A DNA stretch of 64,000 nt, from contig OX597828.1 of assembly GCA_951406725.2 (NCBI GenBank), positions 60,264,001 through 60,328,000 of the forward strand, read 5' to 3'. The notes under the pieces are model-generated. The model made no database searches. It saw only the letters and a list, made by a program, of their open reading frames with translations, and was not told the origin of the DNA. Positions 16,982-18,802 of the stretch are shown here, in pieces. The first letter of the stretch is position 1, and each line of letters starts with the position of its first letter. This DNA is from Octopus vulgaris (Eukaryota). Made by a program: the position numbers and the translations under genes.

Positions 16982-18453
16982 GAGTGTAGAAAGATGGGAT
17001 ATTTCCAATGCAACACTCAGTCCAAGCTTTAGGCTATACACACTGTTGGATTCTATTCTTAAGTAATATTGAAATTCTTCAGGTGTAGAAAATTCAGGTG
17101 TCACAACAGAAAAACCATTGTCTGGATTTATTGAATAGTAATTTCTGCATCAATTCTGCTTTCAACATTAATTTGCATAAAATGAAGATGAGGGTTAAGT
17201 TGGAGAAGAAGAAGAAAGCAAAAATGAATAAGTGGAAGAAGAAGAAAAATATATTGATCTGGACAGAAACAAGTGACAATGAAGTGAAATTGGAACTATT
17301 CCTGGTGTCCTTTGAATCTGGCATTCCAAAGCATAATAGAATATATAGTTAGTAGGTGTGGGCCTTAAAGAATTGAAACACAAACCTAAAGTTATGCAAG
17401 AAACTAAAGTATGGCATATTTTCTATTGCTAGTGTTGAGAGAACTAAGAATTGATAATGACATAGAGTAAAACTGGAATTAAAATAGGCCCATGATCACT
17501 AGTATAGGGGCAAGAGGGAGTAGCAGATATTGGGAGTGTATAAAAGTAGAGTAAATATTAATACTTGTAGTTATTAAGGTATTAGCTGTATTGGAATAAG
17601 ATATACAGGATAAATGAAAAGTAAACTGTTTCTTATTAAAAGTACAAATCAGGATAAATTATGATAAAAAGAAATAATGTAGTGTTGATTGCGTTATATA
17701 TAAGTATAAATATTCAAGAGACCTTGAGAGAATTACATCCTAGACTATCCCCCAAGGAACACAGAAATTCCAAGGAAGAGTAAACAAGCACTGGTCTGAA
17801 AAGATGCCCTGGCAGAAGAATGTGTGAAAAGTCGGCTGTGGGCTGCAGCTGCACTTTACAACCACATAAATAGAGTATGATGAAAAGATTATCAAAAGAA
17901 ATTTAGTGAGAAGTAAAAAAGTTATACAAGATTGATGCCAGAGTTTGGGTGTTGAGGTACCAATGATGAAAAGCACTATAGAAAATACAAATATATTAAG
18001 AATTAACAAAACTTAAAATATTAGTGATGCAATAAAATGCAAATTCTTTACGAATGAAGAATAAGAAATGTAAAGAAACAAAATGAAAATATGAATTTTA
18101 GAATATGAAATATGAGTATATTATTAAATGATACACGCTTGTACACACACACATGCATATATATGGACAGACAAACACACATACAGATATATGGACTCAC
18201 ATTTATATATGCATGCATATATATATATATATATATAATTAATAATAAATATTAGGGAATAAATCCAAACTTACAGGAAAAATCAGATTTAGGATTGAAT
18301 CCAATTTTATAGTAAAATATTATATTATATTAAATTAGACAAAACCACTATTAGGCAAATCATACAATGAAAAACTTAAGCCAATACATAAGATTATTTA
18401 ATTTATATTATTTAAATATATAACAAAATTATTAAAAAATATAATTAATATAA

Positions 18454-18517
18454 CACTACGATCGTTTCATGGCTGTTAATTTCTTTAAATTTTCGAGTTA
18501 CAGTCATTCATCAGGTG
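18454..18517 (-). ncRNA. Minimal type I hammerhead ribozyme (antisense arm)
   Basis: - strand: CAC-CUGAUGA-AUGACUGU..ACAGCCAU-GAAA-CGAUCG-UA^-GUG. Confidence 0.75.
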
Positions 18518-18577
18518 GTTTAAATATTTATCTTGGCGAGTTCATTGTTGAAACCTCGCCAAGATAAATATTTAAAC

Positions 18578-18641
18578 CACCTGATGAATGACTGTAACTC
18601 GAAAATTTAAAGAAATTAACGGCCATGAAACGATCGTAGTG
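18578..18641 (+). ncRNA. Minimal type I hammerhead ribozyme (sense arm, in NUP205 intron)
   Basis: cac(18578-80) CTGATGA(18581-87), stem II atgactgt..acggccat, GAAA(18627-30), stem III with palindromic GATC loop, cleavage triplet GUA ending 18638, gtg closing stem I. Confidence 0.75.
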
Positions 18642-18770
18642 TTATATTATGTTTTTTTAATAATTTTGTTATATATTTAAATAATATAAATTAAATAATC
18701 TTATGTATTGGCTTAAGTTTTTCATTGTATGATTTGCCTAATAGTGGTTTTGTCTCTAATTTAATATAAT

Positions 18771-18802
<32 letters not shown>

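Follow-up and report, generated by a model that had tools for sequence, protein, structure and literature searches.

The window (the whole 64,000-nt stretch of Octopus vulgaris DNA that was analysed) contains, on its plus strand, a NUP205 intron of 13,956 nt (15862-29817, GT..AG), within which lies a near-palindromic insertion carrying a hammerhead ribozyme core on each strand. The preliminary description had placed the site in a NUP205 intron, and this is borne out by the exons that flank it on the plus strand, by the GT..AG borders and by matches to the Nup192 family; the downstream exon is 100% identical to P0001, which its source names Nup205 of Octopus vulgaris. The features are as follows.

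15808-15861 (+): NUP205 exon upstream of the host intron
18236-18771 (both strands): whole insertion, 536 bp, in (TA)n/(CA)n microsatellite, read as two head-to-head spliced leader copies of a Penelope-like element (PLE)
18236-18540 (-): minus arm, with 13 nt of exon 1, then exon 2 and tail, ending at site 2
18236-18322 (-): PLE 'tail', ~85 nt between end sites 1 and 2, present in one arm only
18454-18517 (-): second hammerhead core, in the minus arm
18528-18540 (-): exon-1 part of the minus arm, with the same splice junction as the plus arm
18539-18771 (+): tail-less plus arm, with 29 nt of exon 1, then exon 2 as far as end site 1
18539-18567 (+): exon-1 part of the plus arm, containing the 14-nt 'loop' (18541-18554)
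18578-18641 (+): type I hammerhead, sense to NUP205, predicted cut after A18638
29818-30027 (+): NUP205 exon that follows the host intron, Nup192 family (PF11894)

The inverted arms reported earlier (18323-18540 and 18555-18771) are ~96% identical, differing by one substitution and two small indel regions, and both reported cores (CAC-CTGATGA-stem II-GAAA-CGATCG-TA-GTG) were found at the positions listed. The boundaries and the centre of the palindrome required revision. The extent originally given, 18323-18771, is too short, since the minus arm runs on in a tail that matches the parent element down to ~18236; and the 14-nt loop, which had been taken for a spacer, is really unpaired exon-1 sequence of the plus arm, the exon-1 part of which agrees with the parent element at 27 of 29 bases. 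The arms meet with a 2-nt overlap, AG, and no target-site duplication was discernible around 18236-18771. Judged from the similarity of its arms and from the 95-97% identity within the family, the insertion is young. Its effect on NUP205 is probably neutral.

Other repeats populate the window. A broken RT fragment of an RTE-type LINE (18790-20385, +) lies directly to the right of the insertion, with similar pieces at 12245-12496 and 13339-13694. The same NUP205 intron harbours an apparently intact open frame of 972 codons (21586-24504, -) whose endonuclease and RT motifs are those of CR1/L2-type LINEs; fragments at 6094-6558 and 9533-10399 are related to it. Inverted repeats of 171 nt (16810-16980 and 20888-21058; 94% complementary, 3.9 kb apart) bracket the palindrome, and upstream of it lie a 2.5-kb (TA)-rich microsatellite (6900-9450) and a 100-N assembly gap (~10260-10360).

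The parent Penelope-like element and its family

A genome search with one arm gave 1,245 candidates, 40 of which were scored, with 60 matches at 92-100% identity. By pattern, a 22-mer near the arm 3' end marks 6,881 exact arms genome-wide, the 3' half of the ribozyme has 1,615 exact occurrences, and the start of the ORF has 67 when one mismatch is allowed. The RT- and GIY-YIG-coding parent that the preliminary description had proposed to look for was located by extending copies upstream. The arms copy the leader of this autonomous PLE of the same genome, in keeping with the earlier view of the insertion as PLE-derived and non-autonomous; the partial inverted pLTR suggested at the time is likewise recognisable, the palindrome being two head-to-head leader copies.

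Copies of the parent show the order pLTR-ORF-pLTR, with pLTR direct repeats, inverted 5'-truncated copies and a tail at one end. The ORF is ~2.4 kb and the whole unit ~4.9 kb, including a ~1.3-kb 3' region and an 851-nt intron; Hydra-clade elements are generally <3 kb, a length exceeded here that is a typical and not a strict feature. An insertion bias towards (TA)n was evident, with 139 of 146 arm ends adjoining microsatellite.

The element has a single RT ORF, with YRDD, DIG and PMG motifs in natural fragments; no intact ORF was found in the 12 long loci read, their ORFs all being broken. A structural model of the RT (pLDDT 90) matches RT folds including that of TERT, a fold that does not discriminate among RTs, and the best match in a PDB profile search was a retron RT (E 0.02); Pfam gave no match for five ORF fragments and two homologues. 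The GIY-YIG region (VVYKC...AIYIGST), assigned by motif alone, is 35% identical to that of the homologue P0009. For assignment to the Hydra clade we used the motif features listed in section 11 of PMC8557442. The parent ORF has DKT in place of DKG (QSDKTRN) and an RWK-like motif, RIKWKAY, that aligns with RLRWKAF of P0009 (among 34 long homologues, 31 have DK[TS] and 22 have [RK]W[KR]); it also has a CxCX5C linker (CTCRDKSKC), a CxxC (CYLCSNE) and a CxH (LLN..KCRH), around conserved E and N. No CCHH was seen by eye in the element's EN. On these sequence features, the window arms are leader copies of the pLTR of a Hydra-clade PLE.

Three further observations concern the family. An asparagine/lysine-rich low-complexity stretch lies in the ORF between RT and linker (L065:3640-3960), and is also present in P0008 and P0009. 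At C9:55181106-55181691, three head-to-tail 281-bp units (L240-L242), each made up of the 3' part of the pLTR, the tail and the ORF start without a hammerhead, form a small PLE-derived tandem array. Upstream of the arm in L003 is an inverted piece coding for a PTDKSG peptide, possibly from another PLE family.

Spliced and unspliced genomic copies

Precise intron loss is the mark of an RNA template in processed pseudogenes. The intron of the parent pLTR (851 nt, GTATGT..TTTTAG) ends 13 nt before the hammerhead core, and it is at this one point that copies split into two classes. Both window arms have an exact exon-exon junction, with no microhomology at the intron ends; in the plus arm it falls between 18567 and 18568, the position of the GT-AG intron in the parent. 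Genome-wide (G000), the spliced junction has 272 exact matches, or at least 404 with a second, overlapping pattern, and exact patterns for unspliced copies mark 96 acceptors and 53 donors, all lower bounds from differing patterns at loci chosen by exact match and not as a random sample; reversed-pattern controls gave 0-1.

Spliced and unspliced arms occur together in four stem-II subfamilies (48/12 in A, 13/14 in B, 6/13 in C and 8/8 in D). A tree built from 75 spliced and 47 unspliced arms (122 in all) requires 22 label changes, at least 10 of these changes being forced by well-supported branches, and 0% of 200 bootstrap trees place the spliced arms on one side. The presence of both classes in four subfamilies, together with the 22 changes, indicates that the intron was lost many times, as expected from copying of spliced RNA. 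Shuffled labels need 36 changes, so there is some clustering of the two classes. For seven spliced arms there is an unspliced arm of identical sequence.

The two classes also differ in where they begin. Measured by ungapped extension and BLAST, none of 82 spliced arms continues upstream into the element, against 30 of 36 donor-bearing copies (Fisher p 2e-22). The 82 arms reach 11-46 nt into exon 1, and L037, which falls outside the pattern that defines them, reaches ~51 nt, as judged by eye. At the other end, none of 83 spliced arms runs on into the ORF leader. TATA-like and initiator-like words are present at what we take to be fitting distances.

Longer copies show a different balance. Nine of 70 ORF-start arms have a hammerhead leader, of which seven have an unspliced acceptor, one (L057) is spliced-like and one is unclear; L066 is also unspliced. 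With seven of nine unspliced, long copies seem to have come mostly from unspliced RNA. In the near-full-length L057, exon 2 is directly preceded by the final 7 nt of that copy's exon 1 and followed by the ORF and an intron-bearing 3' pLTR, and it is this single locus, through those 7 nt, that points to a spliced and an unspliced pLTR in one molecule. Splicing, transcription start and cleavage are all read here from DNA copies alone.

Two other loci were noted. The ORF-bearing copy L246:303-3024 begins 18 nt ahead of the donor with its intron in place, which is how a copy of unspliced promoter-started RNA would look. In L005 (1816-1908, -) an exon-like 93-nt piece with AG..GT borders, for which no PDB match was found, lies upstream of a solo spliced arm that is oriented the same way, at a distance of ~90 nt.

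Paired arms, the ribozyme and competing explanations

The 3' ends of arms fall at two sites separated by ~85 nt. Among 78 head-to-head pairs, 65 join one tail arm to one site-1 arm, one has two tails, one has none and 11 are unclassifiable, so that one tail per pair is the rule in 65 of 67 classifiable cases (p 1.5e-17 against one half). In a sample anchored on the 3' 22-mer, comprising 24 pairs and 52 solo arms, the rule held in 23 of the 24. The tail-less arm is the longer at the 5' end in 31 of the 65 pairs (the window included), the tail arm in 21, and the two are equal in 13, with 5' ends being approximate in diverged subfamilies; roughly ten tail arms go no further than the vicinity of site 1, a pattern like that of twin priming on a single RNA. 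Both arms have a common haplotype in 20 of 24 pairs, against 12.6% of 6184 random pairs, and they share five rare variants across the 24 pairs, against 0.017 per random pair, with 45 rare variants unique to one arm. This points to a single RNA or a single source locus for the arms of a pair, and to little conversion afterwards. At seven loci (L028, L030, L038, L042, L048, L054 and L074), perfect hairpin centres were seen at short exon-1 palindromes (~-19, -37 and -42 to -46), sites at which the 3' ends of two cDNAs could anneal.

The presence of spliced arms inside palindromes implies that the template must be sense RNA. We consider it likely that the insertion consists of two head-to-head, intron-less PLE leader copies made by two-site reverse transcription of spliced sense RNA at nicked (TA)n. 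In this process the element's protein would nick the (TA)n target and each DNA end would prime reverse transcription, the two arm ends being the start sites, one per target end, as a comparison with the Anolis PLE in vitro suggests; the upstream limit at ~46-51 nt would be the transcription start, and the two cDNAs would be joined at their 3' ends. The pLTR-ORF-pLTR copies of the parent, the exact junctions, the one-tail pairs and the microsatellite ends all fit this scheme; pairs with equal 5' ends (13/65) and some of the perfect hairpin centres fit it less well, since fold-back would also give them, as does the clustering of spliced and unspliced labels beyond that of shuffles (22 versus 36 changes).

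By extension, the intron may be removed only near the cap, with the downstream pLTR of the same transcript staying unspliced. This unspliced distal pLTR would regenerate intron-containing, promoter-bearing elements, and spliced leader copies would be promoterless dead ends. We lean slightly towards the view that intron retention in PLEs reflects such a positional filter, made up of sense RNA with or without splicing, two fixed starts and cap-proximal splicing, with spliced leaders shed as hundreds of copies. A spliced sense template argues against the published idea of an antisense template for intron retention.

A covariance-type search for the hammerhead had been suggested, and an Rfam scan of 17500-19600 returned no hammerhead at E<=5, only chance matches to miRNA-type hairpins; recognition of the core came instead from its motif and its conservation across subfamilies. 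As had been anticipated, copies preserve the core (CUGANGA, GAAA, UH and three helices), which is invariant except at N7 (U/A/C) in nine arms of six subfamilies. In these arms 90.9% of helix cells are paired, a level that none of 500 shuffles reaches, and just one change in the helices is two-sided, which CpG decay could give. The core is kept although the stem II insert spans 16 to ~70 nt among subfamilies, and the ribozyme is therefore likely to be functional for the parent element. Older subfamilies (L292, L294, L296, L300, L243 and L299) have a short, perfect stem II and a stem I of 4-6 bp, and four of the six retain the intron acceptor 13 nt before the core; in young subfamilies stem I is weaker and stem II is mismatched.

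The window hammerhead has a 3-bp stem I, a stem II mismatched at the third pair and a palindromic stem III, ACGATCGT. In folding calculations for the window subfamily, stem III scarcely forms in the monomer (probability 0.003), in agreement with the dimer-type behaviour envisaged in the preliminary description, and its 8-nt palindrome would allow one molecule to pair with another (-10 kcal/mol); the window ribozyme is thus predicted to be of a weak dimer type. Genomic copies span the cut, so their templates were uncleaved RNA. Just 2 of 93 arms begin within -3..+4 of the predicted cut, where no sharp pile-up of genomic-copy 5' ends was found. A modest excess of arm starts at +4..+25 (n=93), confounded by AT-rich sequence and missing subfamily references, did not recur when 34 partner arms were tallied (11 in 1-71, 6 in 72-97 and 15 in 98-205). 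Selection for ribozyme-dead C3U copies, a candidate from one alignment in which 7 of 102 carried the change, was rejected because the 2 of 100 counted by eye among the first 100 listed of 676 matches resembles neighbouring C positions.

It had been proposed that the antisense arm sequesters the sense ribozyme as a built-in off switch. As physics this holds, since the duplex (MFE -320 kcal/mol) excludes the ribozyme fold, the calculated stem II pair probability falling from 0.54 alone to ~1e-40 in the palindrome; selection for a switch has left no sign. Conservation of the core bases across diverged subfamilies, and the depletion of Xenopus retrozymes from introns reported in the preprint 10.64898/2026.07.22.740005, would suit an inverted arm kept because it silences a self-cleaving RNA in an essential gene, as would the predicted abolition of the ribozyme fold. 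We nevertheless judge this quite unlikely, because the geometry follows from the insertion mechanism (65/67 pairs), and the antisense arm comes first in any head-to-head pair, on either strand. Solo arms outnumber pairs (52 versus 24), the partner arm usually does not extend far enough to cover the ribozyme, the insertion is young, and with so little stem III in the monomer there is perhaps little to switch off. The lack of monomer cleavage in metazoan PLE hammerheads (PMC4209133) and a protein requirement of the Anolis hammerhead (PMC11167929) also weigh against it. On the two-site reading, the hammerhead would be a passenger that serves the parent, predicted to be duplex-locked in NUP205 pre-mRNA as a by-product.

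Fold-back of a single cDNA, or antisense self-priming as modelled in PMC3846280, with the spliced form having entered the genome earlier, could account for the 13 pairs with equal 5' ends, several of them at short exon-1 palindromes, and for the sharing of rare variants between arms (5 in 24 pairs against 0.017 per random pair). We hold it to be unlikely: each kind of arm can be the longer at its 5' end (31 and 21 of 65 pairs), and the extra parts cannot have been missing from a single cDNA and yet have been copied from it. The ~10 tail arms that stop near site 1, like twin priming, and the 45 arm-unique rare variants also speak against fold-back, and the repeated origin of spliced forms, which requires sense RNA, speaks against antisense self-priming. 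One intron-less, non-autonomous master of a SINE- or retrozyme-like kind would explain many short copies of 95-97% identity and some clustering of spliced arms on the tree, with deletion of the segment from DNA as a variant; both are highly improbable given a precise GT-AG loss that involves no microhomology, and, for the master, given the interleaving of spliced and unspliced arms in four subfamilies, the seven identical pairs, the absence of upstream promoter sequence from all 82 spliced arms and of any head-to-tail leader array from the window. The earlier retrozyme label falls away for related reasons, as the window holds a head-to-head pair with no tandem array, its arms are direct copies of an autonomous PLE leader, and head-to-tail hammerhead units, which define retrozymes, are absent from this single occurrence. 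Palindromes are a known class of assembly artefact, which favours such an origin in general; here it is scarcely credible, since the arms differ in substitutions, indels and extent, and 78 pairs elsewhere have varied centres and follow the one-tail rule.

Precisely spliced, recurrent, start-site-bounded genomic copies can come only from sense RNA, and exon-exon junctions in solo pLTRs offer an inexpensive check that can be applied to any genome. Through the one-tail rule, the pair of reverse-transcription start sites established in vitro is linked to the two ends of the target. If true, the positional-filter reading would replace the antisense self-priming hypothesis and would account for many of the solo pLTRs, and of the hammerhead pairs on opposite strands, that animal genomes contain. 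In NUP205 pre-mRNA, the predicted 220-bp duplex is a candidate editing substrate.

Comparison with known systems

In L1 twin priming, two primers on the sense RNA yield an inverted piece; the octopus cDNAs would differ in their overlap, often over 200 nt, and in beginning from two fixed internal sites instead of from a poly(A) tail. Among the closest counterparts are the C-terminal EN+ PLEs of the Hydra clade (Craig et al. 2021, PMC8557442), including Hydra-1_Obim of Octopus bimaculoides, which have the same RT and C-terminal GIY-YIG, share DKT, the CxCX5C linker, CxxC/CxH and the hammerhead layout with the octopus element, and also have (TA)n targets, an inverted 5'-truncated copy and a tail at one end only. 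The hammerhead sequence is unlike that of Hydra-1_Obim in the PMC8557442 supplement, which suggests a different family. The octopus element further differs from the clade in its ~1.3-kb 3' region, its 851-nt pLTR intron, its N-rich linker (N-rich inserts are described for Adineta Penelope elements in PMC3846280) and its hundreds of spliced leader copies, which the passages of PMC8557442 on the Hydra clade do not mention; its tail is 85 nt, compared with 30-40 nt in published PLEs.

Penelope of Drosophila virilis has a spliceosomal 5'-leader intron ~46 nt after the start site (PMC2377424), which ends at the 5' side of hammerhead helix I, and a palindromic helix III, as here (PMC2377424, PMC4209133). 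Its intron is 75 nt, compared with 851 nt in the octopus element, and its transcripts are mostly spliced although genomic copies are described as intron-retaining (PMC2377424); in the octopus, spliced genomic copies outnumber intron-bearing ones. In Anolis Poseidon PAc (PMC11167929), as here, two fixed 3' ends bound the tail, targets are AT-rich and the template is uncleaved RNA; both DNA strands are cut and extended, and a dimer is predicted. The PAc start sites, determined in vitro, lie 111-118 nt inside the ORF, whereas the octopus ends, inferred from genomic copies, are both upstream of the likely ATG. Non-LTR retrozymes (10.64898/2026.07.22.740005) are likewise short, non-coding, PLE-related and equipped with a type I hammerhead, and are defined by at least two head-to-tail units, unlike the head-to-head octopus insertion.

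A tail at one end and common inverted pLTRs have been published (PMC8557442, PMC3846280), as have pairs of hammerheads that lie 100-700 bp from each other on opposite strands (PMC4209133), and on these accounts a two-hammerhead palindrome belongs to the recognised by-products of PLEs. Antisense self-priming has been proposed for head-to-head palindromes and retained introns in PMC3846280, which leaves an unspliced sense template possible, and the retention of introns after retrotransposition is treated as unexplained in PMC8557442. Searches of the openly accessible literature turned up no description of spliced genomic PLE copies. What appears new in the octopus copies, as read from their sequence, is that the leader copies are spliced, are bounded by the start site and have a two-site anatomy.
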